Positions 1-46,393 of a stretch of 64,000 bases of DNA are shown piece by piece. The stretch is from positions 127,419 through 191,418 of the forward strand of contig CAZVUO010000001.1 of assembly GCA_964630235.1 (NCBI GenBank). Direction: 5' to 3'. How positions within the stretch are numbered: the first letter of the stretch is position 1; each line of letters begins with the position of its first letter. Origin of the DNA: an uncultured bacterium (GTDB lineage Bacteria; Oederibacteriota; JAAXVQ01; JAUVAV01). A program made the position numbers and the translations under genes. Under the pieces are notes generated by a model. It was not told the origin of the DNA. It made no database searches and saw nothing but the letters and a program-made list of their open reading frames with translations.

Positions 1-528
<528 letters not shown>

Positions 529-630
529 CTAGGACGAGGTCTTGCCGGGGAGGGATTACACCCTAACCCCTAATGCCTCCCATGGTCTTTCGTCTCAAGC
601 GGTATCCCAGGGGTCAGGAAATAACAGTTT

Positions 631-755
631 ATGGAGCCCCCCGGGCAAAGCCCGGGGTACCAACTTCACCCCTCGCTACACCCTTTTGGCGACATCCCCG
701 AAGCAACGCTTCCGCATTCACCCCCGAGCAAGCTCGGGGTGCCCTGCGGAGGGGA
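631..755 (+). repeat. ~125-nt GC-rich multi-hairpin repeat element, copy A
   Basis: About 85-88% identical to the reverse complement of 6175-6300. Contains hairpins ccccgggc-aaa-gcccgggg, gaagc-aac-gcttc and cacccccgagc-aa-gctcggggtg. It is intergenic, between the gltX start and the bactofilin 3' end. Confidence 0.75.
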
Positions 756-769
756 CGGCCCGCGGCTTC
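746..769 (-). terminator. hairpin cccgcggctt-cctt-aagccgcggg immediately downstream of the bactofilin stop
   Basis: Perfect 10-bp inverted repeat just 3' of the minus-strand bactofilin CDS. Confidence 0.4.
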
Positions 770-787
770 CTTAAGCCGCGGGAGAAT

Positions 788-1177
788 TCATTTCCGGGCG
801 CGCAGAGGATCGAACTTCAGCTCGGGTTCGAACTTTTCAATTCCCATGTCGCAGTTGCCCTTGAAAATCACGCCGTCCGCGATGGCCACGCGCGGCGAGT
901 GTATGTCCCCCTGCAACTGGCCGGTCGGCATGATCTCGATCCGCTTGGAGGCGAACACATTGCCCGACACCTTGCCGGAGATCAGCACGGTCTTGGCCGT
1001 CAGATTGCCCTTCACGACCCCTTTTTCCCCGATGATCAGGCTTTCTTCGCTGGAAACGTTGCCTTCGATCTTGCCGTCAATGCGCACCGTGCCTTTGGCG
1101 TTGATCTGGCCTTTGATCTCCGAGCCTGCGCCCAGAATAGTATCCACGCCCTTGGCATTCGGGATTTCGTCGTTCAT
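788..1177 (-). CDS. bactofilin (CcmA-like polymer-forming cytoskeletal protein)
   Basis: 129 aa made of repeated G-x-V/I beta-helical motifs (KGTVRIDGKIEGNV..GEKGVVKGNLTAKTVLISGKVSGNV) with a C-terminal K/E-rich tail. Confidence 0.8.
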   Translation of the reverse strand: MNDEIPNAKGVDTILGAGSEIKGQINAKGTVRIDGKIEGNVSSEESLIIGEKGVVKGNLTAKTVLISGKVSGNVFASKRIEIMPTGQLQGDIHSPRVAIADGVIFKGNCDMGIEKFEPELKFDPLRARK

Positions 1178-1190
1178 CTGTCGGCTCCGT

Positions 1191-2108
1191 TTAGTCTTTC
1201 AGGTACTTCAAGGGATCAACCGGAATGCCGTTGAGGCGGATCTCGAAATGCAGGTGCGGGGCTGTAGAGCGGCCGGTGTTGCCCAAAAAACCGATCACTT
1301 GCCCGCGGCGGACCCGCTGGCCGACATTGACCAACTGGCGGCTCAGGTGTCCAAAGCGCGTGGAAAATCCGTATCCGTGATCAACGATCGCGAGTTTTCC
1401 GTATCCGCCTTCCCACCCTGAATACGTGACCACGCCGTCGGCCGGCGCCTTGATGGAAGTGCCCTCTTCATTGGCGATATCAATGCCCTGGTGAAACAGC
1501 GGACCTTCCTGGAAGGGAGATTGGCGCATGCCAAAACGGGAGGTCAGCCATCCGCGAACCGGCCAGGAGGAGGGACGCGAGGCCATGACCGAACGCTGGG
1601 TGGCGATGTACTTCTTCATTTCCTGGTAGGTATCCAGGCGCTCCTGGGCGTCTTTTTTGAGAAAAGACAAACTTTGATTAAATTCCTTTTGGGTCAGACC
1701 GGCTTTTTGGTTCAAGGTTCTCATCAGGTTGAGCTGGTCGGCCATGGTCGGCCCGCCTTCGCCTGTGTATTTGATCAATTCATTTTTATTTTGCATTTTC
1801 AGCATGGCCTGGAGTTCGTTCTCCATTTTAGCCACGCGTTGGAACGCTTCATGGGTATTCGCTAGTTCCTGTGCAAAAAAAGCGTTTTTCTCGGCCAGTT
1901 GGATGTTGGCCCGTTTGGTTAATTGGTAATCCAGATGGCGGGTCAGAATGTAGGAAGAAGAACCGATCAACCCCAGCGCAACCAGACCCAAGATGAACAG
2001 GAGTGTGTGGGAGATCCGCACCGAAAATATATTGCTTTCGTCGTGCGGCACCAGCATGAAGGTGAAGTAGCGCTTTTGTTTGCTGGATGTTTTTCCCATT
2101 TCTACCAC
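1191..2108 (-). CDS. M23 family (LytM-like) peptidoglycan metalloendopeptidase with N-terminal TM and coiled coil
   Basis: C-terminal HQGIDIA...GWEGGYGKLAIVDHGYGFSTRFGHL...GNTGRSTAPHLHFE, the M23 HxxxD / HxH zinc motifs; N-terminal hydrophobic segment. Confidence 0.85.
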   Translation of the reverse strand: MVEMGKTSSKQKRYFTFMLVPHDESNIFSVRISHTLLFILGLVALGLIGSSSYILTRHLDYQLTKRANIQLAEKNAFFAQELANTHEAFQRVAKMENELQAMLKMQNKNELIKYTGEGGPTMADQLNLMRTLNQKAGLTQKEFNQSLSFLKKDAQERLDTYQEMKKYIATQRSVMASRPSSWPVRGWLTSRFGMRQSPFQEGPLFHQGIDIANEEGTSIKAPADGVVTYSGWEGGYGKLAIVDHGYGFSTRFGHLSRQLVNVGQRVRRGQVIGFLGNTGRSTAPHLHFEIRLNGIPVDPLKYLKD

Positions 2109-2249
2109 CTAATTTCAGTCTCGGCCTTGTGCCGTAAATCTTAATATATCAATTTTATAAAAATCCGTCAACTATTTTGTCAGAATTGTCGTTTTTTATT
2201 TATCTATTGCGTTCCCGGAATGAGGCAGCTGCCTGGCACCCGAAAATCA

Positions 2250-3119
2250 TTATCTTAAAAGGGCTAAAATCCTGTCCAGATCTTCCAAGGAATAATATTC
2301 AATTTCGATCCGGCCTTTTTGAGCGTTGCGGGGAATGACGCGGACTTGAGTTCCCAATTTTCTTTTTATTTCATCCTCCAACTGACGGAGATGAGGATCC
2401 TTGATTTCCAGGCGCTTGGCACCCTTTGGTTTGGGCGCTTTTACCGGTTTCAGCCCCTGGGCCAGCTGCTCGGCTTCCCGCACGGACAAATTGTCCCGGA
2501 TAATCTTGTCCGCCAGCCGCTTCCGGGCCTCTTCGTCGCTCACGGCCAGCAAAGCCCGGCCGTGGCCTTCGCTCAGGCTGCCATTGCGTACCAGTTCCAA
2601 CAGCGGGGCGGACAGCTGCAGCAAACGGAGGGTATTGGCCACGGAAGAACGTTCTTTCCCGATCTTTTTAGCCAACTCTTCCTGGGTGAGTTCGAATTGA
2701 TTCAGCAGCTGGTTGAAAGCCTGAGCCTCTTCCACGGGATTGAGATCCTCGCGCTGGATATTCTCCACCAGCGCCAGTTCCAGACTTTCGGTGTCGCTGA
2801 TATCGCGGATCACCACCGGCACCTGGGCCAGGCCTGCCAGTTTGGCGGCGCGCAGCCGCCGCTCGCCGGCCACCAGCTCGTAGCGGCCCTCGCCGCGGGG
2901 GCGGACCAAAATCGGCTGGACAACGCCGTTTTCCCGCACCGAAGCGGTTAACTCTTCCAGTTCGTGGGGATGGAAATCCTGGCGGGGCTGGTGCGGATTT
3001 GGCACGATGCGGTCAACGGAAACCTCGGTCGGTGTGGAAGATGCGACGGGCGCGCCGTTCACGTCGCCGGAAACCGGGATCAACGCTTCCAGCCCTTTTC
3101 CCAATGCCTGTCTGCTCAT
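2250..3119 (-). CDS. parB: chromosome partitioning protein ParB/Spo0J
   Basis: [15 protein letters not shown] start; the [12 protein letters not shown] box and HTH region are present. The ORF-track start at 3257 is probably too far upstream. Confidence 0.9.
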
Positions 3120-3171
3120 GGTGCCAACGCCCCTTTGCCTGATATGCCCGCGTGGAGGTGTGGAAAAATGC

Positions 3172-3981
3172 CTAGACTTCCGCCCGCTCGGCTTCCGCGG
3201 AAGCCGGGACAGACGCCGTTTCGTTGCGCGCAATGACTTCCTCCGCCAGCCGCGCATACGCCAGCGCCCCGGGGCAGTGTTTGTCGTACTGCAGAATCGG
3301 TTTGCCGAAACTCGGTGCCTCGGACAGCTTGACGTTGCGCGGAATGATCGTGTCGTACACTTTGCTCTGAAACCGCTTCTTGATTTCCTGGATCACTTGC
3401 ACGGTCAGGTTGGTGCGCAAATCGCACATGGTCAGCAGCACGCCCTCGATCCGCAATTCCGGGTTGAGTCCGTTTTTCACCAGAATGATCGTCCGCAAAA
3501 GCTGTCCCACGCCGTCCAGGGCGTAAAATTCGCCTTGGATGGGAATCAGCACCGTGGCCGCGGCGGTCAGCGTGTTGATGGTCAGCAGACCCAGCGAAGG
3601 GGGACAGTCAATCAAAATATAATCGTACTGCTGCCGGATGGAACCAAGACCCTGACGCAGACGGGTTTCCCGGGCAATGACGTTCACCAATTCAATTTCC
3701 GCGCCGGACAGCTGAATGTTGGCCGGGGCCAAATCCAGGTTGGGAATTTCGGTTTTGGCGATAACCTCGTTGAACGGCTTGCGTCCGATCAGGACGTCAT
3801 AAATGCTGGTCGGCAGCTTCTCCTTGTCAAAACCCAGGCCGACCGTGGTGTTGCCCTGGGGGTCAATGTCAATGAGGAGGGTTTTTTTTCCCTGGGCGGC
3901 CAGTCCGGCGCCCAGGTTGATGGTCGTGGTGGTCTTACCCACCCCGCCTTTCTGATTGACAACGGCGATAACCTTGCTCAT
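3172..3981 (-). CDS. parA: chromosome partitioning ATPase ParA/Soj
   Basis: MSKVIAVVNQKGGVGKTTTTINLGAGLA deviant Walker A; full-length 269 aa. Confidence 0.92.
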   Translation of the reverse strand: MSKVIAVVNQKGGVGKTTTTINLGAGLAAQGKKTLLIDIDPQGNTTVGLGFDKEKLPTSIYDVLIGRKPFNEVIAKTEIPNLDLAPANIQLSGAEIELVNVIARETRLRQGLGSIRQQYDYILIDCPPSLGLLTINTLTAAATVLIPIQGEFYALDGVGQLLRTIILVKNGLNPELRIEGVLLTMCDLRTNLTVQVIQEIKKRFQSKVYDTIIPRNVKLSEAPSFGKPILQYDKHCPGALAYARLAEEVIARNETASVPASAEAERAEV

Positions 3982-4541
3982 GAACCACCCTGCGGCAAGG
4001 TGCAGGGTATGCAGACATCATGCCCCGCAGACATGCCACCTTGTTCTTCCCCAGCAGCCAGTAGATAGATGGCGAAGGGGTATCAACCTTCCACGACTGC
4101 TGGTTGACTCTCCGGGTTCTATCCGGAAAGGGTTAGAAGTAACACAGCCCACTGGGATTGTAAAGCAAATAATCCGGCCGCCTGGCCTGCGTCTTGGCCG
4201 CCGGGAACACTTCCCCGGGTCCATGGTCCCACAGGCAGTGCCTCCGCAACCCCATCCCGAAATTCCTCTCCCCGGCCTTCAGCTTCCACCGGGACCTGCT
4301 GCCGGGAATTCCCGTGGAGGAATGGAAAACCAGCGAGTGGAATAATGGTGGTGTGTGGATGTGGGTGTGGGTCCGGCGCCAGGCTCGCGCGGCCGAAGCC
4401 GCTTTTCCGGTGGTGGTACGGTCTGCAATGGCAAAGTATAACACATTTTACGAGGGGGTGCCATGGGGAACATCCTCGCCCGATTTATTTATGCAAGGAA
4501 TTTTCACCAGGCCGGTCCAATCATTTCAGGAGGTGTCTGCC

Positions 4542-6095
4542 ATGTTTGCTCGCGCGTTCAGCAGTGCGCTGTGGGGGATCGCAGCCAAATTGGTGCAGGT
4601 GGAGGTGGACGTGCGGCCCGGCCTGCCGGGGTTCACCATCGTCGGTCTGCCGGATGCCGCCGTAAAGGAGAGCCGCGACCGGGTAACCGCGGCCCTGAAA
4701 AACGCCGAACTCGCGCTGCCGCCGCGCCGCATCACCGTGAATCTCGCTCCTGCGGACCTGCGCAAGGAAGGGCCGACCTACGATCTGCCCATCGCACTGG
4801 CCCTGCTGGCGGCCTCGGAACAGCTGGAGCCGTCCGCCCTGGACGAGCACCTTATTTTCGGCGAGTTGTCCCTCGATGGCCGCGTCTGCCCGGTCCGCGG
4901 CGCCCTGTCGTTCGCGGCCGCGGCCAAACCGCACGGGTTCTCCCGCGTGCTCCTGCCGGCGGACAACGCGGCCGAGGCTGGCGTGCTGGCGGACAGCTCC
5001 CTCTATCCCGCGCGCACGCTGCTTGAGGCGATGGAGCACCTCAGCGGCCGCCGGCGCCTGGAAGCGTTTTCGCTGGATTGGGCCTCCGCCTTCCGGCAGG
5101 CGAGCACTTACAGCGTGGATTTCAGCGAGGTGCGCAGCCAGTTCCACGCCAAACGCGCGCTCGAGGTGGCGGCCGCGGGCGGGCACAATGTCCTGCTCAT
5201 AGGGCCGCCAGGCAGCGGCAAAACCATGCTGACCCAGCGCCTCCCGACCATTCTGCCCGACCTAACCCTCAGCGAAGCCCTGGAAACCACCCAACTCTAC
5301 AGCCTGCACGGACTGCTGCCGCCCCACAGCACGCTTATCCAGCAGCGCCCGTTCCGGTCCCCGCACCACACGGTCAGCGACATCGCGCTGATCGGCGGCG
5401 GGACGTTCCCCCGGCCGGGTGAGGTCTCGCTCGCGCACAACGGCGTGCTGTTCCTGGACGAACTGCCGGAATTTTCCAAGCACGCCCTCGAAGTCCTTCG
5501 GCAACCCCTGGAGGAGCGTCAGGTGACCATTTCGCGCACAGCCGCGGCCGTGACCTACCCGGCCCGGTTCATGCTGATCGCGGCCATGAATCCCTGCCCC
5601 TGCGGGTACTACACGGATCCCCACAAGGAATGTTCCTGCACCTTTCCCCAGATCCATAAATATCTCAGCAAGATCTCCGGCCCGTTGCTGGACCGCTTTG
5701 ACCTCCATTTGGAAGTGCCGGCCGTGAAATACCAGGAACTCGCAGGTGGACCGGATCCGGAATCTTCGGCCCAGATCCGCGCGCGCGTGATGGCCGGCCG
5801 CGCCCGCCAGCAGGAGCGCTACGCCGCGCACCCGGGCGTGCTGGTCAACGCCCACCTCACGCCGCGTCTGATCCGCCAGTACTGCCGCCTGGATCCTGAC
5901 AGCCAGCAGTTGCTCAGAACCGCCCTGGACCGTCTCGGTCTTTCCGCCCGCGGGTATCACCGCATCCTCAAAGTCTCCCGGACCATCGCCGACCTGGCCG
6001 ACAGCGCTGCCATCCAGGCGGAACACGTGGCTGAAGCCATCCAGTACCGCGCCCTGGACCGGCGGTTTTTCGGCCGCGCGCCGGCTTTGCGCTAA
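4542..6095 (+). CDS. YifB/ComM-family Mg-chelatase-like AAA+ ATPase
   Basis: MFARAFSSALWGIAAKLVQVEVDV... Lon-like N-domain, Walker A GPPGSGKTM, a C-terminal zinc-ribbon-like CPCGYY..C motif. AGGAGG lies 8 nt upstream of the ATG at 4542. Confidence 0.88.
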   Translation: MFARAFSSALWGIAAKLVQVEVDVRPGLPGFTIVGLPDAAVKESRDRVTAALKNAELALPPRRITVNLAPADLRKEGPTYDLPIALALLAASEQLEPSALDEHLIFGELSLDGRVCPVRGALSFAAAAKPHGFSRVLLPADNAAEAGVLADSSLYPARTLLEAMEHLSGRRRLEAFSLDWASAFRQASTYSVDFSEVRSQFHAKRALEVAAAGGHNVLLIGPPGSGKTMLTQRLPTILPDLTLSEALETTQLYSLHGLLPPHSTLIQQRPFRSPHHTVSDIALIGGGTFPRPGEVSLAHNGVLFLDELPEFSKHALEVLRQPLEERQVTISRTAAAVTYPARFMLIAAMNPCPCGYYTDPHKECSCTFPQIHKYLSKISGPLLDRFDLHLEVPAVKYQELAGGPDPESSAQIRARVMAGRARQQERYAAHPGVLVNAHLTPRLIRQYCRLDPDSQQLLRTALDRLGLSARGYHRILKVSRTIADLADSAAIQAEHVAEAIQYRALDRRFFGRAPALR

Positions 6096-6174
6096 CCCGC
6101 GTCCTTTTTTCCGCCGGCCAAAGATGATTGACACCCTGGTTGGCGTGCCCTATGATGAAGCGCCGTAATGGTCG

Positions 6175-6300
6175 TTCCCCTCCGCAGGGCACCCCGAGCT
6201 TGCGCGGGGGTGAATGCGGAATCGCTGCCCCGGGGATGTCGCCAAGAGGTACTAGCGAGGGTTGAAGTTGGTACCCCGGGCTTTGCCCGGGGGGCTCCAT
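6175..6300 (-). repeat. ~125-nt GC-rich multi-hairpin repeat element, copy B (inverted relative to copy A)
   Basis: Reverse complement aligns to 631-755 with a few substitutions. It is intergenic, between the yifB stop and the start of the O-antigen-ligase-like gene. Confidence 0.75.
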
Positions 6301-6347
6301 GCGGGTCTGACCCGCTATTTCCCAAGCCAACAAGGTGACACGCTCAG

Positions 6348-8612
6348 ATGGCCACACCCGCCGCTGTCACAGGGACCGAAGGACGCGTGATCCGCGCCTG
6401 CGATCGGATCATGGAATTTTTGTTCTATGCGGTCTTTTTCCTGGTCCCGATTTTCTTCATCATTTTAACGCGCGACCAGTTCGAACTTCCCAAGCTGGCC
6501 TTGTTCCGGATCCTCACGTGCTTCATGCTGGGCACCTGGGCCGTCCGGCTGCTGGCCAGCCGCCAATGGCGGTTCAAGGCCACTCCCCTGGCGGTTCCGC
6601 TCCTGGCGTGGATCGTGCTCCAGTTGCTGACCACTGTCATCTCCGTCTCGCCTTCTGTTTCCTACCGGGGAGAATACGAGAACTTCCGGGGATTGCTGAC
6701 GGTCCTGAATTACCCGGTGCTCTTCTATCTGCTGGTGCATTTTTTGCGCACCCGCCAGCAGATCAACCGCCTGTTCTTCGTCATTCTGCTGGCCGGCCTG
6801 GTCGTCACGTTCTACGGGATCAGCCAGTTCTTCGGCATTGACTTTGTCGCCTGGAACCCCACGTCCATCGCGCCGGGCCGGTATTTTTCCTCGCTGGGCA
6901 ACCCGAATTTCCTGGCAGCCTACCTGGCCATGGTCGTGCCCTGGACCATCGTGTTTTTTATCGAGACCCAGTCGGTCTTCCGCCGCGTCCTGCTTTTCAT
7001 CAGCTTTTTAGTCATGTTCTTCGCGCTGCTGGGCACCTGGAGCCGGGGCGGATTCCTCGGCCTGGTCGCGGCGCTGGCCGTGCTCGCCGCCTTCGGCTTG
7101 GCGCGCGCCGCTGACTGGCTGCGCCGGCATCCGGAAGGACCTGCCCAAGCCCTCCGCCAGGCGCCTGGGTTCCGGGTCTGGATCGCCCTCCTGGGGCTGG
7201 CCGTGGCCGCGCTGGTCACCTTGTCCCTGACATTTGGCCGACAGCACATGCTCCGCATGGCGGATACGATCCTGCATTTCCCGGACGCGGTCAAGGTCTC
7301 GCGGCTGCACATCTGGGGACCGGCCGTGGGCATGATCCGCGATTACCCCATCCTGGGCACGGGCCTGGACACCTTCAAAACCGTGTTCCCGCGGTATGCC
7401 ACCCCCGCTTTCGCGGCCATTGACGGCGCGAACGTATCCTCCCGCACGGCCCACAACGAAATTCTGCAGGTGCTGGCCACGCAGGGCGTGGTCGGGCTGC
7501 TCGTGGTCATATGGCTGACCGTGGCCATGGGCCGGGCGTGGTGGCGCGCCTACCGCCGTCCCGGCGCCAGCGAGCGGGACCGCCTGCTGCTGATCGGCAT
7601 CCTGGCCAGCTGGACGGCCTACTCGGTCCAGAACCTGTTCTCCTTCGGCGTCGTGTCCATTGACACATTCTATTGGCTGCTCGTGGCGGTCGTCGTTTTG
7701 CTCGGAATGTCCCCCGAGGAGCAGTCCCAGTCAGCCCTGCCCCAGTCAGCGGCCGCCAAACCCGGCGCGTTCTGGCGGGCGCTGCAGCCGTTCCAGCTGC
7801 TCGTGGGATTCTTGATCGCGGTCATCGCGCTGTTCGGCGTGTGGTTGAATTATCGCGCCGCGCTGGCGGATTACGCCTACAACCTGGGCACCGTGTACCG
7901 CCTGCAGGGCAATCTGGATTACTGTTTGCGGGCCTTCAGCACAGCCAGCCGGCTGGTCCCGACCGAGGTCAAATATGTGGTGTACGAGGGATTGGCTTAC
8001 GAGGAACTGGTGCGCACGGTGCCGCCGGAACGCCAGCAGCCGCTGATCCGGAAAGCCTTGGACGCCTACCGGCGCGGTGTCGCGTTGAATCCCACCAACG
8101 CCTATTACCTGGGCAACCTCGGCCGCGCCTATTCCATGGCCGCGGCGGCGGAACCCCAGAACCGGGACTATTACGAGCAGGCGGTGCATTACTTCCGGGA
8201 GGCGGTCCGCTTTGCCCCGGTGACCGTATTGTTTTACCAGAACCTGGCCATGACCCACCTGGCCCACGGGGAGAGCGACAAATTCCTGGAAGCCGCCAAA
8301 CAGCTCGCGGCCTTTGACCGCAAGGAAGCCGCCAGCCTGGTTTTCAGCGGCGCGAACCTGCTTTACAACCAGGAACAATTGGTCATGGCCAGGGAATGGT
8401 ATCTGACCGCCCTGGAGTATAAACCTGATTATCCGGAGGCGCAGTTCAATCTGGGTGTCAGTTACGCGCGCCTGGGCAACATCCCCGCGGCGCTGGCCGC
8501 CTGGCGCCGGGTCCTGGAGCTGCGCCCGGATTTCACTCCGGCCCAGGAAATGCTCAAGCGTTATGTTGCTCCGGGCGCGACGGCATCCAGCCAGTCCATT
8601 TTGAATCAGTAA
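6348..8612 (+). CDS. O-antigen ligase (Wzy_C)-like polytopic membrane protein fused to a C-terminal TPR domain
   Basis: About 12 TM helices, the RTAHNEILQVLATQGVVGLL motif typical of O-antigen ligases, and TPR-like repeats in the C-terminal third. An alternative start at 6411 (MEFLFYAV) is possible. Confidence 0.7.
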   Translation: MATPAAVTGTEGRVIRACDRIMEFLFYAVFFLVPIFFIILTRDQFELPKLALFRILTCFMLGTWAVRLLASRQWRFKATPLAVPLLAWIVLQLLTTVISVSPSVSYRGEYENFRGLLTVLNYPVLFYLLVHFLRTRQQINRLFFVILLAGLVVTFYGISQFFGIDFVAWNPTSIAPGRYFSSLGNPNFLAAYLAMVVPWTIVFFIETQSVFRRVLLFISFLVMFFALLGTWSRGGFLGLVAALAVLAAFGLARAADWLRRHPEGPAQALRQAPGFRVWIALLGLAVAALVTLSLTFGRQHMLRMADTILHFPDAVKVSRLHIWGPAVGMIRDYPILGTGLDTFKTVFPRYATPAFAAIDGANVSSRTAHNEILQVLATQGVVGLLVVIWLTVAMGRAWWRAYRRPGASERDRLLLIGILASWTAYSVQNLFSFGVVSIDTFYWLLVAVVVLLGMSPEEQSQSALPQSAAAKPGAFWRALQPFQLLVGFLIAVIALFGVWLNYRAALADYAYNLGTVYRLQGNLDYCLRAFSTASRLVPTEVKYVVYEGLAYEELVRTVPPERQQPLIRKALDAYRRGVALNPTNAYYLGNLGRAYSMAAAAEPQNRDYYEQAVHYFREAVRFAPVTVLFYQNLAMTHLAHGESDKFLEAAKQLAAFDRKEAASLVFSGANLLYNQEQLVMAREWYLTALEYKPDYPEAQFNLGVSYARLGNIPAALAAWRRVLELRPDFTPAQEMLKRYVAPGATASSQSILNQ

Positions 8613-11600
8613 GCCCCGCCCGGCCGGCTGTTGGTTTTTTTGCTCCCCGCCCCCGCGATTTCAATGCGGTCCGGGCCCACCAGCTTTCCCAATCCCTCGA
8701 GCAGGGGCTCGTCCACCGTCACACCGAACTGCTCGGGCAGCTGTTCCCGCACTTCGCCATGGTGGACCGTGGCCAGCTGAAGCCACACCGGCGTGGCCCC
8801 GCTGTGCTTGAGCAGCAGTGCCTTCAGTTCTCCCAACTGGTCCGTCCCCAGGGTCGGGGGCAGGTGCAGGATCAACTTTCTGGACAACTGGGGATACGCC
8901 TGCGTAAAGGGCACGATGTCCGCGGCCACCAGCCGGCTTTCTTCCCCGCTGCGGTCCACCCGCCCCAGCACGAAGAGCAGCGCCCCTTTCACCAAAAACG
9001 TCCGGTGCCGGCCCAGCAGGTCCGGCCACACAATCACCTCGACCAGGCCCGCGGGATCTTCCAGCCAGAAGCGGAGCATGGTTTCCTTGCGCTTGGTCAG
9101 GCTGTGCCGGAGGCCCGTGACCTCCCCGCCGATCACCACGGACGCGCCTTCCGGCAGCCCGCCCAGCGTCTGGGTGTTGGCGGTATTGAAGGTTTCCAAA
9201 ACCCGGGTGAACTCGGCCAGCGGATGCCCGGAGAGATAGAACCCCAGCGCTTCTTTCTCGTCGGCCAGACGCTGGCGCGGCGATTCGGCCGGTTGCGCTT
9301 CGGCGGCCGCCGGTTCGGCGGGCAACTCGTCGAACATGGCCATCTGCCCTTGTTCCTTCTCGCTCTGCCATTTCTGCGCCGCACCCAGCACCTGCGGCAG
9401 CTGGCGCAGCAGCTGGGCGCGGCTGGCGTTCAATCCGTCCAGCGCGCCGGCCTTGATCAGGCTTTCCAGCACGCGGGCGTGCACGGTCCGGAGCTCCACC
9501 CGGTTGCATAAATCGGAGAATGAACGGAAGGGCCCGTCCGCCGCGCGTGCCTCCCGGACGGCCCGGGCCGCGCCGATCCCCACGTTTCGAATGGCGGCCA
9601 GGCCGAAGCGGAGCCCTTCCCCTTCGGCGGCGAACAATTCCTGGCTGGCATTGACGTCGGGCGGAAGCACGGACAGGCCGAGCCGCCGGCATTCCGAAAG
9701 GTACAGGGCGATCTTATCCGTGTCACCGGCTTCGCTGGACATCAGCGCGGCCATATAGGGCAGGGCGAAATTGGCCTTGAGATAGGCGGTTTGATAGGCC
9801 AGCAGGGCGTAGGCCAGACTGTGGGACTTGTTGAAGCCGTATTCTCCAAAGCGGACCAGCTGGTTGAAGATCGTCTCCGCGGTCTCGACCAGGATGCCCC
9901 GCGACCGGGCGCCCGCCGTGAACCGCTCCCGCTGCTGTTCGATGGTGTCCGGGTCCTTCTTGCTCATCGCCCGCCGCAGCAGGTCCGCCTGCCCGTAGGT
10001 GAAGCCGCCGAGCGTGACGGCGATCTGCATCACCTGTTCCTGATACACAATGGTGCCGAAGGTCTCGCCCAGGATCTCGGCCAGGGCTGGATGGGCGAAA
10101 TGGATCGGGACCCGGCCTTGCTTGCGCTGGATGAAATCGTCGATCATGGCCATGGGCCCGGGCCGGTAGAGCGCGATCAGCGCGCAGATCTCCTGCAGCG
10201 ACCGGGGCTGGAGGCGTTTCAGCAGATCGCGCATGCCGGATGATTCCAGCTGGAAAATGCCCAAGGTCTGCCCCTCGCCCAGGAGATCGAAGGTCCGCGC
10301 GTCGTCGAGCGGCAGGCCGGCCAGCCCCGGCGGCGTGCGCCCCGAAGCGCGGATGGCCGCGAGCGTGTCGTCAATCACGGTCAGCGTGCGCAGTCCCAGA
10401 AAATCCATCTTTAAAAGACCCAAGCGTTCGAGGGATTCCATGGGATATTGCGTGGTCAGGGTGGCGGCGCTGGGTACGGATCCGCCTTCGCCGCCCCGGC
10501 CGGTTTTCGTCTGGCACAGCGGCACGAGGTCCATCAACGGTTCGCGGGAAATGACCACCCCGGCCGCGTGGGTCGAGGCGTGGCGCACCTGCCCTTCCAG
10601 CGCCCGGGCGATATCCAGCCACTGCTGCATGCGGGCGTCCCCCGCGAACTGGGCCTTGAGCTCGGGTTCGGTCTCCAGGGCCCGCTCCAGCGTCATGCCG
10701 GGGGTTTGGGGGATCTGCTTGGCCACGCGGTCCGTTTCGTCGTAGCCGATCGCGAGCACGCGCCCCACGTCGCGCACCGCGGCCCGGGCGGCCAGAGTGC
10801 CGAAGGTGATGATCTGCGCCACGTTTTCCTGGCCGTATTTCTGCGTCACATAGGAGATGATCGCCTCCCGGCCGCTGTCGGAGAAATCCACGTCAATGTC
10901 AGGCAGGCTCACGCGCTCCGGGTTCAGGAAGCGCTCGAAGATCAGACCGTAGGTCAGGGGATTAATGGCGGTGATGCCCAGCAAATAGGCCGCCAGGCTT
11001 CCGGACACCGAACCGCGGCCCGGCCCCACCGGGATCCTCCGCTCTTGCGCGTGGCGGATAAAATCCCACACGATCAGGAAATACGAGGCGTATCCCATGC
11101 TCCGGATCACGTCCAGCTCATGCCGCAGCCGCCCGCCGACCTCCGGGCCGGCGCCCGGCAGACGCCGTCGCAGACCCTCCTCGCACAGCCAGGCCAGGTA
11201 GGCGTCCGCTTCGTCGCAAGCGTCGCGGGCCATGATCGCCTTCAACTGCGGGGCCGCGGACGCGGGGACCGGAAAACGCGGGAGCTGGATCCGTCCGGTG
11301 GGCAGTTCGACGTTGCAACGGCCGGCGATCTCCTGGGCGAGCTGGCCGGCTTCGGGAAGCTCGTGGAACAACGATTCCATCTCCGCGCCGGATTTCAGGA
11401 AAAACTCCGGCGCGGGCAGCCGCATGCGCTTGTCATTGTCCAGCGTGGTGCCGGTTTGCAGGCAGAGCAGGACGTCATGCGCCAGCGCGTCCTCCCGGTG
11501 CACGTAATGCACGTCATTGGTGGCCACCAGCGGCAGCGCGAGCTCGCGGGACAGGTCCGCCAGACCGCGGTTCACCGGGCCCTGTTCGGGCAGTCCGTGA

Positions 11601-38249: not shown

Positions 38250-39416
38250 TCATGGCGCGATGGCCATCTTTCCTCTGAGCCAACGGCGGCCCTGCTGATC
38301 CTCGAGCTGTATCCTTAGATAATACACCCCTGCGGCCAGTTCCCGGGTGGAAAACGCGGTGACCGCCCTGCCGTCCAGGCTGAAAGTCTCGTCCGTCACC
38401 AGCAGCACGCGCTCGCCGGCGGGGTTATACACCTCCACCCAGGCCCGCGTGGCGCCCGAACAGGCATAAGACAGCTGCACGCGCTCGCGCGCCGGCTGGG
38501 GGAAGACCCGCATGTCCTCCCCGGCCAGATCCGGCGCTGCGGTCAATGTGGCCGAGCGCGAGGACGCAGCCGCCGGTGTCAGGGTAGGGGTCACGGTTCC
38601 CGTGGGCGTGATGGTTCCGGTGGGCGTGATGGTCCCCGTGGGAGAGAGGGTCGGCGTTCGGCTGACCGTGGGTGTCATGGTCGGACTGTACACCGGCGAA
38701 CGCGTGCTGCTGACTGTGATGGTCCTGGTCCGGCTCGCGGTCGGGGTCGCGGTGCGCGTGGAGGTGCCGGTCGCGGTGCGCGTGATCGTAGGGGTCTGGG
38801 TCGGACTGTACACCGGCGACGGGGTGCCGGTCGCGGTGCGCGTGCGCGTGGCTGTAAACGTCGCCGTGCCGCCGGGCGTGGGCGTGGCGGTTCCCGTGAT
38901 CTCCGTGGCGTAGATGCAGAAGCGCCAGGGCTGCGCGCCCGTGGGAGAGCCAAAGGGAGCGGGGAAACTCCCGTACGCATACGGCCATCGCTCGCGGCTC
39001 TTGAAAAAGTTAGGATCGTCGTTATAGAGTCCCACGGTCGTAATGGTGTTGGAAAGCTGGTTGGCCAGCCAGTAGGTCGCCCCACTGGTCACGGCCGTTT
39101 CCGGGATCACGAAGGCGTTCCAGCCGGTGACCAGCGGTTGGGAGGCGCTTTCCGCCAGCAGCGCGCCCGGCAGATTCAGGCCGCCGTCGCCGTACAAAGC
39201 CACCCGGCCGCTGGCCCCTCCGGTCACCGTGACATAGAAGAAGATGCGGTTGACCGCGCCGGCCGCCGGGCAGCTGAACTGCGTGGCGGTCAGGAAATTC
39301 TGGTTGTCGTAGATTTCGTAGTTCCCCGTCCCCTGCTCGCCAAAGGTGACAGCCTCGGCGGTCGCGGCGGTTAGGGCCAGAGCCAGCAGCGCGAGGCCAG
39401 GGCCGCGAAAGGTCAT
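38250..39416 (-). CDS. secreted protein, paralog 2 of the preceding gene (same N-domain, shorter TP linker, same C-terminal sorting-type domain)
   Basis: [22 protein letters not shown] signal; N-domain ~55% identical to paralog 1; C-terminus ...[16 protein letters not shown]...[11 protein letters not shown]...GVYYLRIQ...GKMAIAP. GAGGGAG RBS 5 nt upstream of the ATG at 39416. Confidence 0.7.
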
Positions 39417-39429
39417 GGCTCCCTCTCGA

Positions 39430-41310
39430 TTAACGCACCACGACAAACTTTTTCTTGATCGTCCGCTTGCCCCCCGCGTCCTCCACCTGGAGGGTGGCGT
39501 AGTAGAACCCCGGCGCCAGGGCGCGGGTGTCCAGGTCCGTAACCGCGTTCCCGCGCACGGCCTGGGGCTGGTCCTCGACGCGGGCCACGATCTCGCCCGT
39601 GGCGTTGAAGATCACGATCTTGACCTGGCCAGGCCCTTCGAAATGGTAGATAAAGCGCGCCACCTCCCTGGCCGGCTGGGGAAAGACCACGCTTTCGTCG
39701 GACCGCAAGATATAGGGAGTCGTCGTGGATGTGATGGTAATGGTCGGAGTGATAGTCCTTGTAGGGGTAATCGTAGAAGTTGGCGTGAACGTGGAAGTAC
39801 GAGTAATCGTGGGCGTTGATGTTCTCGTTGGTGTTCTGGTACGTGTGGGAGTTATAGTAGGGGTCGGAGTGATCGTCGGTGTGGCAGTGTGGGTGGGGGT
39901 AATGGTCGGGGTCGGGAAGATGCTTAGAGCACGGAGCACATTAATTCGACCGCTGCCGATGGCTGATGAACTTCCAGAATCAACGCTATCGCAGTTACTT
40001 AGTATCCTCGTTCTGATTTGGGCTGATGTCATCGCGGGCCAGGCAAGCTTGATCATAGCGGCCAGTGCTGAAACCTGCGGGCAAGAAAAGGAAGTCCCAT
40101 CCACAGAACTCCAACCACCTGTGTTTGCAGTAGATGTGACACCGTTGTCTTCCGGAAACGAAGGATGATATTGTTGTAATGCCCCTCCAGGAGCGACACA
40201 GTCCAATCGCGAAGCATCGTAAGGGCTGCAGTAATTTGAATAATAGGTAATAAAATCCTCTGAGTCGGTTGCTCCGACACTCATAACACTCGCATAACAC
40301 GCAGGATACCGAGGCGCAGTTGCCAAATTAATATTCTCATTTCCTGCAGAGGCGACCATTAATTTGCCGGCGCTATTAGCGTAATTAATTGCCGTCAAAA
40401 TCGTGGCTGAATCAGTGCCGGTGGTGAAACTCATGCTCAAGATATCCGCCCCATTATCTACAGCCCAGGTAATCCCATCCGCGATATCAATAAATGTTCC
40501 AGCGGCGTCTTGGTCCAGTACTTTTACGGGCATGATCTTCACCCGGTTATCATAAGCTGTTCCCGCAATCCCGCTGCTATTGTTAATAATGGCTGCGATC
40601 GTGCCCGCAGCGTGTGTGCCATGTCCATAAATTGGGCGGCCGCCGAAAAAGATATTGTCATCGTTGGTATTTGTGTTGTTAAGGATTACGTTGTATCCCG
40701 GAACCAACCGACCGGAAAATTCAGCATGGTCGGCGTCAACACCCGTATCTAAAACCGCCACCACCACCTGCTGGGTGTTGAAAAAATAATTAGCCGCTTT
40801 AGCCGCGTCCCCACGCGTGCGGTTGATCCACCATTGCGTAAACCCATTTACATAATAAGTGTCGTTGAATGAACCTCCGATAGGTGTATAGGTAGTTGAA
40901 ATAGCCGCTGCGTAAACACGGCCATTAGGCTCGATGGCTTCGATTATTGCGTTCCCTCGCATGGCAGCCAACGCAGAAGCCACTGATTGCCCTGCGGGGA
41001 GTTCCAATAGATTCCAGTCTTTCAACCTCGTTTGACGCTTTACCCGAGTTTTAAAATGACGGTGAAATGCCGCCTCCGCAGTTGCGATATTTATGGCACT
41101 GGCTTGTACCTGGGTATTAAATCGCATACGGTCTTCCGCAGTTAGAACACTCTTATACTTGACTAATATTTCACCCTCAAAGTAGTCATTTGTCTTTTGG
41201 CAGGGATGCGGAAGAATTGGCATACCTGTTTTATCCGGACGATTGGCGGAAAACACCACTGAGGGGTAAAGGGCAATTATTAATATCAACAATCGGGAAA
41301 TACAGTTCAT
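39430..41310 (-). CDS. secreted S8 subtilisin-like serine protease + TP linker + C-terminal sorting-type domain (AT-rich gene)
   Basis: Signal MNCISRLLILIIALYPSVVFS; catalytic triad contexts VAVLDTGVDADHAEF / HGTHAAGTIAA / GTSFSCPQVSALAAM; TP-rich linker; C-terminus ...[17 protein letters not shown]...GFYYATLQVEDAGGKRTIKKKFVVVR. GGAGAGGTG RBS before the ATG at 41310. Confidence 0.85.
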   Translation of the reverse strand: MNCISRLLILIIALYPSVVFSANRPDKTGMPILPHPCQKTNDYFEGEILVKYKSVLTAEDRMRFNTQVQASAINIATAEAAFHRHFKTRVKRQTRLKDWNLLELPAGQSVASALAAMRGNAIIEAIEPNGRVYAAAISTTYTPIGGSFNDTYYVNGFTQWWINRTRGDAAKAANYFFNTQQVVVAVLDTGVDADHAEFSGRLVPGYNVILNNTNTNDDNIFFGGRPIYGHGTHAAGTIAAIINNSSGIAGTAYDNRVKIMPVKVLDQDAAGTFIDIADGITWAVDNGADILSMSFTTGTDSATILTAINYANSAGKLMVASAGNENINLATAPRYPACYASVMSVGATDSEDFITYYSNYCSPYDASRLDCVAPGGALQQYHPSFPEDNGVTSTANTGGWSSVDGTSFSCPQVSALAAMIKLAWPAMTSAQIRTRILSNCDSVDSGSSSAIGSGRINVLRALSIFPTPTITPTHTATPTITPTPTITPTRTRTPTRTSTPTITRTSTFTPTSTITPTRTITPTITITSTTTPYILRSDESVVFPQPAREVARFIYHFEGPGQVKIVIFNATGEIVARVEDQPQAVRGNAVTDLDTRALAPGFYYATLQVEDAGGKRTIKKKFVVVR

Positions 41311-41518
41311 TGTCGCACCTCTCCCTTTATAATAAGCATGTCCAAGTATAACAAGGCTTCCTATGAGAGGCAAGAGGTGCCGCCTCATTCTTTTAATTAA
41401 AATACCGACAAAACAAAGCTTTTTGTTTGCGTTTTGGGCACAATTCAAATACCCTTTTAAATATATAGAACATATTAGTAATTGATCGGGTTAATGAATG
41501 ACTCTCCAGGAGGAATCA

Positions 41519-44500
41519 TGGACAAATATTATAAAAACGGTTTGTTGTGGGTTACCCTTCTTTCCCTTGCAAGCGTCCCTTACCTATCAAGTCAAATATT
41601 CCATCACGAACAGGGCGAAGGCTTAATAAAAAATCAATCCGAGTGTTTTAACCATAGCAATGACAGATTGATTTATTTATCAAAAACTTTAGTACACCCC
41701 AAAGTCCTGCGGGCGGGCGCAACTAAATCCTGGATTGATAAAGCTCTTGAAACAATTGAAAATTATGAATATTTAGTGACCCACATTTCAGCGCGTCCCC
41801 AAGCAACCAATAGGCAACAAAATTTTCGTTCTTTTTTTGAACCTCAGGGAGTCACACTGCATCCTCGTGGTTTATCACAACGAAACCAGCATCGAGAACA
41901 TTCGAAGTCGTCATTAATAAATCGAAACAATAAAAATGTTCCACTTCCATCATGGAAGTGGAAATGGGAGACTAAAGAATTTGGCAGACGAGGTCTTTTA
42001 CACCCAATTTCCCCAGCCAAACCCATAATTAATGGCAATCGTGTAGAATATAATCGAGGTCCAATAACAGAGTGGTATGAAAACCGCCCGGAAGGTTTGG
42101 AACAAGGATTTATTATATTTCAAAGGCCAACTATTTCTGCAACCACTCTATCTTCAACTAATTTACCTAATAATGAATGGGTTATTATTGCTTCACATGA
42201 AATACAGGATTTGAAATTACGGCTCTCCTTCGATAATAAAAGCATATACTTTCTTGATAATAACCAAAATATTGTACTGGAATATGGGCAACTATTAGTT
42301 AAAGATAGAAATCAACATATATTACCCTCTAAATTGGGGGTTGAAAATAACAGGATTATTCTATCTTTTTCCGATAAAAATGCTACCTATCCCATAGTTA
42401 TTGATCCTTTACTAACCGCCCCCTCTTGGGCCAGAGAAAGTAATCAGGCCTTCGCTTTCTTTGGTTGTAGTGTAGCAAGTGCAGGAGATGTCAATGGTGA
42501 TGGATTTAGTGATGTACTTATTGGCGCATATGGTTTCGATAATGGCGAATCTGGCGAAGGACGCGCTTTTGTTTATCACGGAAGCGCATCCGGCCTTTCT
42601 TCAGTACCAAATTGGTCCGCAGAAGTTAATCAAGCTGACGCCCATTTCGGATGGTCGGTTTCTTCGGCCGGAGATGTTAATGGCGATGGATTTAGTGATG
42701 TAATTATCGGAGCCTACAAATATGATAACGGTGAAACCGACGAAGGCCGAGTTTATGTTTACCATGGTAGTCCATCAGGCCTCACTGTTTCACCCAATTG
42801 GACCGCCGAAGGTAATGAATCGAATGCTGTTTTCGGGTATTCCTTGGCTACCGCCGGTGATGTCAATAATGACGGTTATAGCGATATATTAATTGGTTTT
42901 AGAAATCACGTGTGCGTTTTTCACGGCAGTTCGACCGGCCTATCCAACACCCCCGCTTGGCTATACACAAACAATCAACCTGATTCCAACTTTGGCTATT
43001 CTGTAGCAGGAGCCGGAGATACCAATGGTGATGGGTTTAGCGATATTATCGTTGGGGATCATGGATTTGACAATGGTGAAACAAATGAAGGTAGTGCATA
43101 TGTCTTTCTCGGGAGCCCCACGGGTGTTACTACTACAGCCTTCTGGACTGCCGAAAGTAATCAAGCAGAGGCCTGGTTTGGCTTTTCCGTAGCCTGTGCG
43201 GGCGATGTTAATGGCGATGGATACAGTGACGTAATCATTGGGGCCCCCTATTGCGATAATCCCGAAACAAGTGAAGGCTTGGCATATGTATTTCATGGTA
43301 GTACATCGGGTCTTGCCCCTGTAGCATCATGGGTAGCCGAAAACAATCTTGCATTTAACTTTTTAGGATATTCCGTGTCCGGTGCTGGTGACATTAATGG
43401 AGATGGTTTCGGCGATGTTCTTGTTGGTATCCGCGGATATGACAATGGTCAGTCAGATGAGGGGCAGGCGTGCGTTTATCACGGAAGCGCAAGCGGACTT
43501 GCTACCGCACCATCATGGTCTGCCGAAGGCAACCTCGAATACAGCAGTTTCGCTAACGCTTTATCTAGTGCCGGCGATGTTAATGGCGATGGTTATAGCG
43601 ATGTAATTATTGGTGCATCGACTTATGATAATGGCGAAGCAGACGAGGGCCGGGCGTTCGTATTCAACGGAAGTGCTGTTGGTTTGACCCCAACCGCTTA
43701 TTGGTCCAACGAGAATAACCAGCCAGGTTCGCGACTGTCTACTTCCGCCGCTTATGCAGGAGACCTGAACGGTGATGGTTATAGTGATTTAATTGTAGGA
43801 GCCCCTTATTATGACGGAGTTTATAACGAAGCTGGCCGAGTGTATATTTTTCTTGGTAAATATGAAGGATTAAGTTTGACTGCCAACCAAACTATAGATG
43901 GTGGGATAGCCAGCGCTCTTTTTGGTTCTTGCGTATCGACGGCAGGCGATGTAAATGGCGATGGATTTTGCGATGCAATTGTTGGGGCCCCACATTTTAG
44001 TAATGGCGAAAGCAACGAGGGAATTGCTTATGTGTTTTATGGAAACGCCACCGGTCTTAATGCGAGTGCTTCATGGTCTTTTGAAAGTAATCAGATCGGC
44101 GCTCAATATGGATCTGCCGTATCTTCTGCTGGTGACGTAAACGGGGATGGATATGCAGATGTTTTAATATCATCGCCTTTTTATAACAACCTCGGAAGAG
44201 TATATTTATTCTTAGGTGGCGCCTCTGGCCTAGATAGTAATCCAGCTTGGTATGCCGAAGGAGATCAGATTAATGCGCAATTTGGCTCTGCAATCTCAAG
44301 TTGTGGAGACGTTAATGGTGATGGTTTTGCCGATATCGTTATCGGTGCCCCATTCTATGATAACGGCCAAACTGACGAGGGACGTGCGTTCGTATATTTG
44401 GGTCATTCAGGCGGATTAAGCAACCTTCCTGTATGGACCACCGAGAGCGGTCAAGCAGATGCGCAATATGGCCGTTCTGTTTCTTCGGCCGGAGATGTAA

Positions 44501-45708
44501 ACGGGGATGGTTATAGTGATGTGGTCATAAGCGCACCGTTTTACGATAATACCCAGAGCAACGAAGGTCGCGTATATGTCTATCACGGAAATGCCAACGG
44601 CTTGATCGCAACTCCTTCGTTTGCAGTTGACAGTGGTCAGAATAATGCTCAATTTGGCTGCTCAGTGGCTAGCGCAGGAGATATAAACAACGATGGATAT
44701 TGCGACATCATTATCGGCGCTTATCAATTGAACAATGGCCGTGCATACATATTCTTCGGTAGTACTAGCGGTCTGAACATCACCGCGAATTACTTCATAG
44801 ATGGCGACCAATCCGGTTCACAGTTCGGATATTACGTGGCTGGCACTGGAGACGCCAATGGCGATGGATACAGCGATGTGATTATTGGTGCGCCTTATTA
44901 TGATAATGGCCAAACCGACGAAGGAAAAACATTTCTCTATTACGGAAACGAAGGTGTCGCGACACGTCAGTTGCCACGCCAGATACGGCCAAGTAATAAC
45001 ACAGCAATCGGGCCTTCCGGATTAGCGGCCGCCTCAATTGCAAACACCGAATTCCTTGTCCGTTTGTTTTCAAAGGGAAGCCAAGGTCGATCTCGTTCAA
45101 AATTACAGGTTCAAATTTCCTCGCCAAGCCAACCAATTTCAACCGGAATCATTTATTCACAATCTTCATATACAGATACGGGGGTGGCGGGACTAGATCT
45201 AAATTTCATTGTTGGTGGTCTAAATCCTCAAAAGGCATATAATTGGAGAGCCCGTTTACTATACGATCCAAGTCAGAATAATAACGGTCAGCTTCATAGC
45301 CCATGGTATAGATTGTCATGGGGAAGTTTGAATGGTAACGCAGATTTCCGCACCGGGCCAGCGGCCCCTGCAACACCAACTCCAACACCCATTCCAACTA
45401 TATTGCCACCAGAAGATTTTCAGGGTCAGTTAATCGACAGTAAACACTTCTTTGTTTATCCAAATCCTGCCCGTGGGACGAATGTAAAATTCAAGTTTTT
45501 CCTGAAACAGGCAGCAACTGTAAAAATAAAAATATTTACCCCTCAAGGAAAATTTGTATGGGAAAAAGTAAATGAATATCCGCTTGGTTGGAGTGAAATA
45601 ACTTGGAACGCATCAGGAATGGCTAACGGTGTATATTTTTATATTGGAGAAGCTAAAAATAGCTTATACCAAGATAAAATCACAAAAAAGCTTGGTCTTG
45701 TTAAATAG
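41519..45708 (+). CDS. giant (1408 aa) secreted FG-GAP/integrin-alpha-type beta-propeller repeat protein with C-terminal sorting-type domain (AT-rich gene)
   Basis: About 18 repeats of ...F.G.SV..AGDVNGDGFSDVIIGA...DNGE.DEGRAFVY.GS..GLS... C-terminus FFVYPNPARGTNVKFKFFL...KIKIFTPQGKFV...GVYFYIGEAKNSLYQDKITKKLGLVK. AGGAGG RBS before the ATG at 41519. Confidence 0.85.
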
Positions 45709-45815
45709 CCGTTTTTTTTTACCGATTTATCGTTAGCTGTTTTGTTATCTGCGAATTGTTCTTAACTGTTCTCGTTATTTTTCGAGTCGCATCTGTTAGG
45801 CGAATTGCTTTCCTA

Positions 45816-45845
45816 TTTACAAAAATGCTCTTCCAAGCCTATAAT
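45816..45845 (+). promoter_or_regulatory. sigma70-like promoter (TTTACA-N18-TATAAT) upstream of the DUF4870 gene
   Basis: tttacaaaaatgctcttccaagcctataat, 45 bp upstream of the ATG at 45892. Confidence 0.45.
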
Positions 45846-45891
45846 ATCGGCAATTTCAGCTGTATGGCTTCACCCCAGGAGGAAACACCCC

Positions 45892-46251
45892 ATGTCCGTG
45901 CATGCCCATCACGAGGGCCACAGCGACCTTGGCACGACCAAGTCCGGCCTGGACCCCACGGTCGCGGCCGCCCTGGCCTATCTGCTGGGATTTGTCAGCG
46001 GCATTCTCTTCTATATCATCGAGAAGCACAATCCGTTTGTCCGTTTCCACGGCCTGCAGTCCACCATCTTCTTCGGCGGCTTGTTCGTGATTGTGGCCGT
46101 GCTGCACCAGATCCCCATTCTGGGCTTTATCCTCAATTTCATCATCCTGTTGACTGCTTTCGTCATCTGGCTGTTCCTGATGGTCAAAGCCTCCCAGGGC
46201 ATCGCCTTCAAACTGCCCTTTATCGGCGACCTCGCGGAACGCAATCTGTGA
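45892..46251 (+). CDS. DUF4870-family small membrane protein
   Basis: MSVHAHHEGHSDLG... then ...YIIEKHNPFVRFHGLQS... with 3 TM helices. AGGAGG RBS. Confidence 0.65.
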   Translation: MSVHAHHEGHSDLGTTKSGLDPTVAAALAYLLGFVSGILFYIIEKHNPFVRFHGLQSTIFFGGLFVIVAVLHQIPILGFILNFIILLTAFVIWLFLMVKASQGIAFKLPFIGDLAERNL

Positions 46252-46393
46252 ACTTCCCTGCAGCGACTTATGGGCCGTCCTTTAGGACTTGCTGCAGGGA
46301 ATCCGGAGATCATACCCCGGAACCGTGCCGCTTTCATTCACGCAACCAGCTGTGGCATTCGGTGAAGGGGTATAGGCCTGGAGCTGTCCCCGC

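Follow-up and report, generated by a model that had tools for sequence, protein, structure and literature searches.

A short gene-less mobile element, probably of the IS200/IS605 kind, on both sides of the parAB segment in candidate division FCPU426 DNA

What are the two nearly identical, GC-rich hairpin elements that bracket a partition operon in inverted orientation, and does the pair invert the genes between its arms? The question is raised by a 64,000-nt stretch of DNA from an uncultured bacterium (contig CAZVUO010000001.1 of assembly GCA_964630235.1; the whole stretch is hereafter called the window), in which a first element (el1, 631–755) and a second (el2, 6176–6300), each 125 nt long, are separated by a gap of 5420 nt that contains parA and parB. 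Close relatives of the window proteins are labelled candidate division FCPU426. An earlier sequence-only reading described the pair as 85–88% identical and proposed that it represents a dispersed repeat, similar to miniature inverted-repeat transposable elements (MITEs) or repetitive extragenic palindromes (REPs), that could mediate inversion of the parAB segment. A repeat search of the window recovers the inverted pair with a higher complementarity than was claimed (92%; 115 of 125 positions), and a 32-mer common to both arms occurs exactly twice in the window, against 0.00 occurrences expected from shuffles. The results described below suggest that el1 and el2 are independent insertions of a mobile element of ~124 nt that carries no gene, is restricted to the FCPU426 lineage and has the anatomy of the palindrome-associated transposable elements (PATEs) of the IS200/IS605 type. 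The probability of this reading is put at roughly 0.55.

Mobility is indicated by three sites (those of el1, el5 and el7) for which both filled and empty versions are available; all are scarless, and none has a target-site duplication. El1 is missing, with exact boundaries, from the sister strains L001–L007, whose par segment has 98.6% identity to that of the window. Read in the sense of the genes, their empty site is GGGGCCGT/AAACTG (the slash marks the insertion point) versus GGGCCGT[CCCCTCC...CTCCAT]AAACTG in the filled site, and the inserted DNA amounts to 124 nt (631–754 or 632–755, as one base is ambiguous). The el5 site is filled in L015, a 1-kb contig from the European Nucleotide Archive (ENA), and empty in L021 (...GTTGGC/ATGGATGCC). 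The el7 site is filled in L021 and L031 and empty in L027 and L030 (...CCTGACAT/GGAAC), with junctions that read ...GACAT/GGAAC when empty and ...GCCAT[CCCC...CTCCAT]GGAAA when filled. Both window sites are also free of the element in the sister species MAG080 (GCA_040756875.1; ~80% DNA identity to the window), which has short spacers of 89 and 129 nt at these positions and carries its copies elsewhere. The orthologous spacers that lack el2, in MAG080 (L013, 129 nt) and in L001–L007, keep the promoter and the leader sequence beside the ribosome-binding site. Furthermore, el1 and el2 differ by 8%, whereas the empty-site strains differ from the window by just 1.4%, indicating that the two copies are not recent duplicates of each other. 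The 10 differences between them are not compensatory, as had been noted from the sequence, and their longest common perfect runs are 38 and 28 nt.

The insertion sites share a short motif. The 4-mers directly 5' of the top strand are CCGT (el1), CGTT, CAAT, CCAC, CCAT, CCAT and CCAT; this flanking CCAT-like 4-mer corresponds to the last four bases of the element itself (CCAT) and is exact in three of seven copies. Based on the 4-mer frequencies of the window, the probability of at least three exact matches among seven is 2e-6, and for at least six with no more than one mismatch it is 1e-7. At each of the four sites that are informative on orientation (el1, el2, el3 and el7), the flanking genes have the top strand as their sense strand. 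In this small sample (two-sided p = 0.125), the bias appears to go with transcription rather than with one direction of replication. In el1 the strand presumed to be active, or top strand (CCCCTCCGCAGGG...GGGGGGCTCCAT), corresponds to the minus strand, the sense of the flanking bactofilin gene and gltX; the plus-strand reading, ATGGAG...GGAGGGGA, is the orientation in which the element was originally described. For el2 the top strand is the plus strand, the sense of the flanking yifB and Wzy_C/TPR genes. The inverted arrangement of the pair is explained by each copy following the sense of its own flanking genes, which diverge here. The insertion of el7 lies inside the overlapping stop and start codons (TGAcATG) of an alpha-amylase gene and a GH57 gene (L021 7972–8101 versus L027 1927–1929); it lengthens the amylase open reading frame (ORF) from 609 to 622 residues, and the CCAT end of the element rebuilds the ATG start of the GH57 gene.

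The family comprises seven copies, all in FCPU426 DNA and at unrelated loci. In addition to el1 (151 bits) and el2 (146 bits), MAG080 carries el3 on its contig 2 (L009 2172–2320, between a glycosyltransferase-like gene and lepB) and the decayed el4, which has lost one hairpin, on its contig 3 (L013 1462–1599). The ENA contig L015 holds both el5 (188–311) and el6 (620–733), the latter again with a hairpin lost, and the divergent el7 (L021 7972–8101) comes from Logan contigs of the sample series that also contains the window-type strain. Searching the element, translated in six frames, against 5.8 billion predicted proteins gave a single match, which led to L015 and its two copies, and a HMMER search of 1.84 billion representatives added one more protein, which led to L021 with its empty site and its divergent copy. 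A covariance model and nhmmer, applied to 305 kb of the window and related loci, found no copies beyond the seven. A 22-mer from the right-end hairpin has a single location among 185,579 species genomes; as this 22-mer is present in just four of the seven known copies, exact-motif scans of this kind undercount. The three matches to a left-end 20-mer in JGI metagenomes are all due to chance (no homology extends past the 20-mer), both end motifs are absent from viral contigs, and blastn of the element against plasmids and phages gave no match. The density of ~2 copies per 55 kb in flanking DNA that was fetched for other purposes hints at dozens of copies per genome and not two. Both MAG080 copies have an extension of 24–26 nt at the apex of the left-end hairpin that the other copies lack, indicating that subfamilies propagate within lineages. 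A check of copy number and insertion polymorphism, which the sequence-only reading had proposed, returned seven copies and three strain-level filled/empty sites. Its picture of a dispersed, mobile, non-coding repeat is upheld by these data; the classes named for that repeat, MITE and typical REP, are not.

The anatomy of the element is best described on the top strand, which is laid out as 5'-CCCCTCCGCAGGG-(left hairpin)-core-(right hairpin)-GGCTCCAT-3' and begins and ends CCCCTCCGCAGGG...GGGGCTCCAT. The right-end hairpin of el1 (CCCCGGGC-AAA-GCCCGGGG, 639–657; 6274–6292 in el2) has its foot 8 nt from the terminal ...GGCTCCAT. Its stem is replaced by another (CCCGGC...GCCGGG) in el7, and it is deleted in the decayed el4 and el6. 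The left-end hairpin of el1 (CACCCC(C)GAGC-AA-GCTCGGGGTG, 719–741; 6190–6212 in el2) has its foot 13 nt from the left terminus. The left hairpin, CCCCCGAGCAA-GCTCGGGGTGCC, closely resembles the right hairpin, CCCCCGGGCAAAGCCCGGGGTACC. On the top strand the left unit reads GGCA-CCCCGAGC-TT-GCTCGGGG and the right unit GGTA-CCCCGGGC-TTT-GCCCGGGG; the two units match at ~21 of 24 positions and lie in direct orientation on the same strand. The termini, ATGGAGCC and TCCCCTCC, are unrelated, and the element has no terminal inverted repeats. Between the hairpins of el1 lies the core motif TGGCGACATCCCCG (687–700). Its 13-nt form, GGCGACATCCCCG, is kept in six of the seven copies, including the divergent el7, and the decayed el4 has one substitution in it (GGCGGCATCCCCG). 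The termini are likewise kept in el7 (ATGGAGCCCC... and ...CCCTGCGGAGGGGA), where the hairpin sequences differ. The hairpins described earlier, among them the ccccgggc-aaa-gcccgggg stem-loop, are recovered at 639–657, as a weaker central helix at 673–692 and within a nested 3' domain at 695–755. Folding of el1 is better than that of shuffles, both as DNA (z = -3.5) and as RNA with flanks (z = -3.6). The result for el2 is less clear (z = -1.5), and the copies that have lost a hairpin, el4 and el6, fold no better than shuffles.

These features suggest a mechanism similar to that of IS608, in which TnpA binds imperfect palindromes located just inside the two ends on the top strand, insertion occurs exactly 3' of a tetranucleotide that is retained in the left flank, the donor is resealed precisely, and each hairpin foot has on its 5' side a guide tetranucleotide that pairs with the cleavage site (PMC5934647; PMC3597680). 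Gene-less PATE derivatives are mobilised in trans, and guide (omega) RNAs are reportedly common in PATEs (PMC10055086). The FCPU426 element shows the characteristics of this group: twin hairpins on the top strand, no terminal inverted repeats, insertion 3' of a motif, no duplication and scarless sites. By analogy, a Y1 (HUH) transposase of the TnpA type, encoded elsewhere, would bind both hairpins on single-stranded DNA and would cleave 3' of both the CCAT-like motif in the flank and the CCAT at the terminus. Excision would release a single-stranded circle while the donor is resealed, and the circle would then be pasted 3' of another CCAT-like site. The tetranucleotides that immediately precede the hairpin feet, GGCA (left) and GGTA (right), could serve as DNA guides. 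They are position-by-position complements of CCGT (the el1 flank) and CCAT (the terminus), respectively, a pattern that was noticed post hoc; the guide AAAG and the target TTAC of IS608 have the same relation as GGTA and CCAT (PMC5934647). As no transposase was found in the window and the fetched loci, the transposition mechanism is deduced from the element and its sites.

Several results weigh against assignment to the IS200/IS605 type. A Pfam search detected no Y1/HUH transposase, RAYT or TnpB among the ~45 ORFs of the window, which are ordinary housekeeping or cell-envelope genes, and tblastn with IS200 TnpA and RAYT queries found none in the window and the fetched loci; both are weak negatives. 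A full-length parent with these ends was likewise not found; the right-end 22-mer has its one location among the 185,579 species genomes. At some sites the target motif is matched loosely (CGTT, CAAT). Stem substitutions tend to keep pairing as G.U or G.T wobbles on the strand opposite to the top strand: counted on the strand originally taken as forward, there are 16 wobbles and 5 mismatches, versus 1 and 20 on the other. These substitutions are almost all C-to-U on that forward strand, and most fall in the central helix (673–692) and not in the terminal hairpins. This asymmetry conflicts with the assignment of the top strand, and the transposition model leaves it unexplained. Moreover, el1 and el2 have opposite orientations at a distance of just 5.4 kb, and the interval contains no DnaA-box cluster and no switch in GC skew that would mark a replication origin; as a result, their orientation cannot reflect a single lagging-strand template. 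Finally, the complementarity of guide and target lends weak support, as it was recognised post hoc, and pairing in IS608 mixes canonical and non-canonical contacts, with no simple rule at the right end (PMC3597680).

The alternatives were weighed against the same evidence. The element could instead be a doublet resembling REPs or bacterial interspersed mosaic elements (BIMEs), made of two tetranucleotide-plus-palindrome units and a linker and handled by a domesticated RAYT (TnpA-REP). In the top-strand units a GC-rich palindrome does follow GG(T/C)A (GGTA-CCCCGGGCTTTGCCCGGGG and GGCA-CCCCGAGCTTGCTCGGGG), a build that recalls the GTAG-plus-palindrome of REPs (REP/RAYT background: PMC8266576), and the copies are intergenic and in transcribed orientation. 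However, no solitary units were detected in the window and five loci (~150 kb, with 4 errors allowed), and the units are direct and not inverted as in BIMEs and in REPINs, the paired REP elements. The 124-nt block moves as a unit, with constant termini and a constant target motif, and the copy density is modest, in place of hundreds of near-identical copies. The REP label of the sequence-only reading is therefore dropped in view of the missing solitary units and the direct orientation, and handling of the element by a RAYT, although conceivable, is unlikely.

Comparably doubtful is the proposal that the element is an omega-RNA-like guide scaffold, composed of the core and the right end and with the adjacent host sequence as its guide, that would serve a TnpB- or IscB-type nuclease encoded elsewhere, or that its movement in this uncultured phylum depends on a kind of enzyme so far not associated with elements of this sort. 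The scaffold proposal is based on the orientation of the copies: as the top strand lies in the sense of the host genes at every informative site, host promoters would transcribe the element.

Another system that moves DNA without target duplication may be responsible, such as an IS91-type HUH enzyme, an IS110-type DEDD enzyme, or a tyrosine or serine recombinase acting on a 3–4-nt (C)CAT core. A short crossover core would be expected to leave one (C)CAT at empty sites and one at each filled boundary, as observed, and neither terminal inverted repeats nor duplications are present. In contrast, the right terminus never changes but the motif in the left flank does (CCGT, CGTT, CAAT), which fits a tolerated target better than a strict core, and two similar hairpins on one strand are a specific hallmark of IS200/IS605 elements (PMC5934647). 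A gene for such a recombinase is also missing from the ~45 ORFs of the window. Taken together, these points make movement by one of these enzymes improbable.

In another reading the element is a small structured RNA family, either free-standing or a cis-acting leader or trailer, that is spread by recombination and in which the hairpins and the core would be there for the RNA, not for transposition. A near-invariant 13-nt core and near-invariant termini stand beside variable helices, the stem is swapped in el7 and the hairpin apex is expanded in MAG080, and the excess of G.U wobbles is strand-asymmetric. Additionally, el2 lies within a predicted transcribed leader, and omega RNAs are reportedly a frequent feature of PATEs (PMC10055086). 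This reading is nevertheless disfavoured and has a low probability. Neither strand is matched by an Rfam family, which also answers the concern that the two copies might be a known housekeeping RNA, and no promoter or terminator is conserved inside the element or in its flanks. The copies lie beside genes that have no function in common (gltX, a Wzy-like gene, lepB, GH57 and a methyltransferase). Two of the seven copies lack one hairpin, positions are not syntenic between species, and insertion is precise beside CCAT. Furthermore, the strand favoured by the wobbles is antisense to the only transcription that is inferred.

Other identities were tried and rejected. Searching the whole window against Rfam at the gathering threshold returned only RNase P at 53669–54046, and permissive scans of el1, el7 and el3 gave chance-level hits (best E-value 0.1), far below gathering scores. 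ARAGORN found no tRNA or tmRNA in positions 1–9000. A small protein is not supported: in el3 a stop codon interrupts the frame that begins with ATG, and the changes between el1 and el2 are mostly non-synonymous. The classical MITE label is likewise withdrawn, as the element has no terminal inverted repeats and the empty sites reveal no target-site duplication.

The proposal that the inverted pair is a switch for flipping the 5.4-kb parAB-yifB segment by recombination is very improbable: homologous recombination is physically possible given the perfect runs of 38 and 28 nt, and a flip would turn the Wzy promoter (6128–6156) toward gltX, but all eight related loci, which have no copy or different copies, carry the segment in this orientation too, the two window copies are explained as separate insertions that are 8% diverged and short for RecA-dependent exchange, and Pfam identifies no invertase gene nearby. 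The order gltX-bactofilin-M23-parB-parA-yifB-Wzy-dnaE is the same in the window, in the seven sister-strain contigs and in MAG080, which lends no support to the inversion that the sequence-only reading had considered. As a separate observation, more than 10 sequencing runs of the window-type strain yield a ~5.55-kb contig that starts and ends inside the two elements (L008, L017–L019). The repeats thus break short-read assemblies at this locus, and contigs of this kind cannot reveal rearrangements.

The bracketed host segment (788–6095, with genes on both strands) consists of core genes in ancestral order, with L001–L008 and L013 all arranged alike, and Pfam confirms the gene content read from the sequence: bactofilin (788–1177, minus), an M23 peptidase (1191–2099, minus), parB (2250–3119, minus), parA (3172–3981, minus) and yifB (4542–6095, plus). 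Gene boundaries also bear out the intergenic position of both copies, as el1 lies between the start of gltX (471, minus) and the stop of the bactofilin gene (788, minus), and el2 between the stop of yifB (6095, plus) and the start of the Wzy_C/TPR gene (6348, plus). Just past the bactofilin stop codon, and outside the element, is a host hairpin (CCCGCGGCTT-CCTT-AAGCCGCGGG, 759–782) whose foot is 3–4 nt from the insertion point of el1. This hairpin is also present in the empty-site strains L001–L007 and therefore predates el1. Identity to L001 is 92.9% over window positions 1–644 (the gltX region) versus 98.6% over 755–11028, and the change falls exactly at the el1 site, which suggests a homologous-recombination boundary beside el1.

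On the other side of the segment, a sigma-70-like promoter (TTGACA-17 nt-TATGAT, 6128–6156, plus strand; 11 of 12 matches) is located upstream of the Wzy_C/TPR gene and is kept in MAG080 (TTGACA...TATGAT) and L001 (TTGACA...TAAGAT). As el2 starts ~20 nt downstream of this promoter, its top strand should be transcribed within the 5' leader of the Wzy_C/TPR mRNA. A host leader hairpin, GCGGGTCTGACCCGC then TATTTCCC (6301–6315, plus), adjoins el2; its counterpart in the element-free leader of MAG080 is CGGGCTGGGCCCG then AATTCCC. The yifB-Wzy spacer of L001–L007 (L001 4768–5065) contains a different insert of ~300 nt that is absent from the window and includes three G-rich direct repeats of ~34 nt (CCAGGAGTCTGGGCGAGAGGGGTCAGGGAGGGGG) spaced ~132 nt apart, indicating that this spacer is a hot spot for different repeats.

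Three further features of these genomes were recorded. MAG080 has a gene for a 139-residue response regulator between parA and yifB (L013 9367–9786); the only ORF in the corresponding 560-nt spacer of the window (3982–4541) is without a Pfam match. The RNase P RNA of the window is of bacterial class A and full length (53669–54046, minus strand, 305 bits). A low-GC block at ~39400–46400 (45% GC versus ~64% elsewhere in the window) contains genes for an S8 subtilase (39430–41448, minus) and a 1408-residue FG-GAP repeat protein (41482–45708, plus), both with type IX secretion C-terminal sorting domains, and may have been acquired horizontally.

The element is the first well-delimited mobile element for candidate division FCPU426, in which, to our knowledge, no insertion sequences have been described. 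The three filled/empty pairs, the target motif and the structural model suffice to seek the transposase in complete genomes, and the element can be used to mark strains. Insertions at sensitive positions need not be destructive, as seen in a predicted mRNA leader (el2) and in overlapping stop and start codons (el7). Likely consequences at the present locus are that el2 lengthens the Wzy_C/TPR mRNA leader by 125 nt of structured sequence and that el1 adds structure between the bactofilin operon and gltX. The more exciting prospect of a partition operon on an invertible segment is not supported.

Comparison with known systems clarifies where the element belongs. Classical MITEs (Correia/NEMIS, ERIC, RUP and BOX) are similar in being ~100–150 nt long, non-coding, intergenic, structured when transcribed and able to alter the expression of neighbouring genes. 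They differ in having terminal inverted repeats and TA or other duplications (BOX being modular), neither of which is found in the FCPU426 element. REPs, BIMEs and REPINs likewise consist of GC-rich intergenic palindromes that follow a conserved tetranucleotide, are co-transcribed with host genes and are related to the same HUH enzyme superfamily. REPs, however, occur as hundreds of 20–40-nt units, often in inverted pairs, whereas the FCPU426 element is a fixed 124-nt block with two direct units. IS91 shares with the element a likely HUH-type enzyme, the lack of duplication, insertion next to a constant tetranucleotide and hairpins close to the ends. In contrast to the element, the ends of IS91 are unlike each other and its target lies at one specific end, and we know of no miniature 124-nt IS91 derivatives with twin hairpins. 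The closest likeness is to the PATEs, gene-less derivatives of IS200/IS605 insertion sequences (IS608, ISDra2 and ISGst-type elements) that the Y1 HUH transposase TnpA mobilises in trans. The similar imperfect palindromes inside both ends on one strand, the unrelated termini, insertion directly 3' of a short left-flank motif without duplication or scar, and a size within 100–300 nt are all held in common. The tetranucleotides before the hairpin feet, as complements of those at the cleavage sites, may be a further resemblance. The FCPU426 element differs from these in several respects: its target motif (CCAT, CCGT) is looser than TTAC or TTGAT, its copies seem to be oriented with host transcription to either side of a divergent gene pair, its central core is nearly invariant, and no TnpA, TnpB or full-length parent was found for it in the DNA searched. 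On balance, the FCPU426 element is probably best filed as a PATE-like member of the IS200/IS605 kind, which transposes as single-stranded DNA with HUH enzymes.

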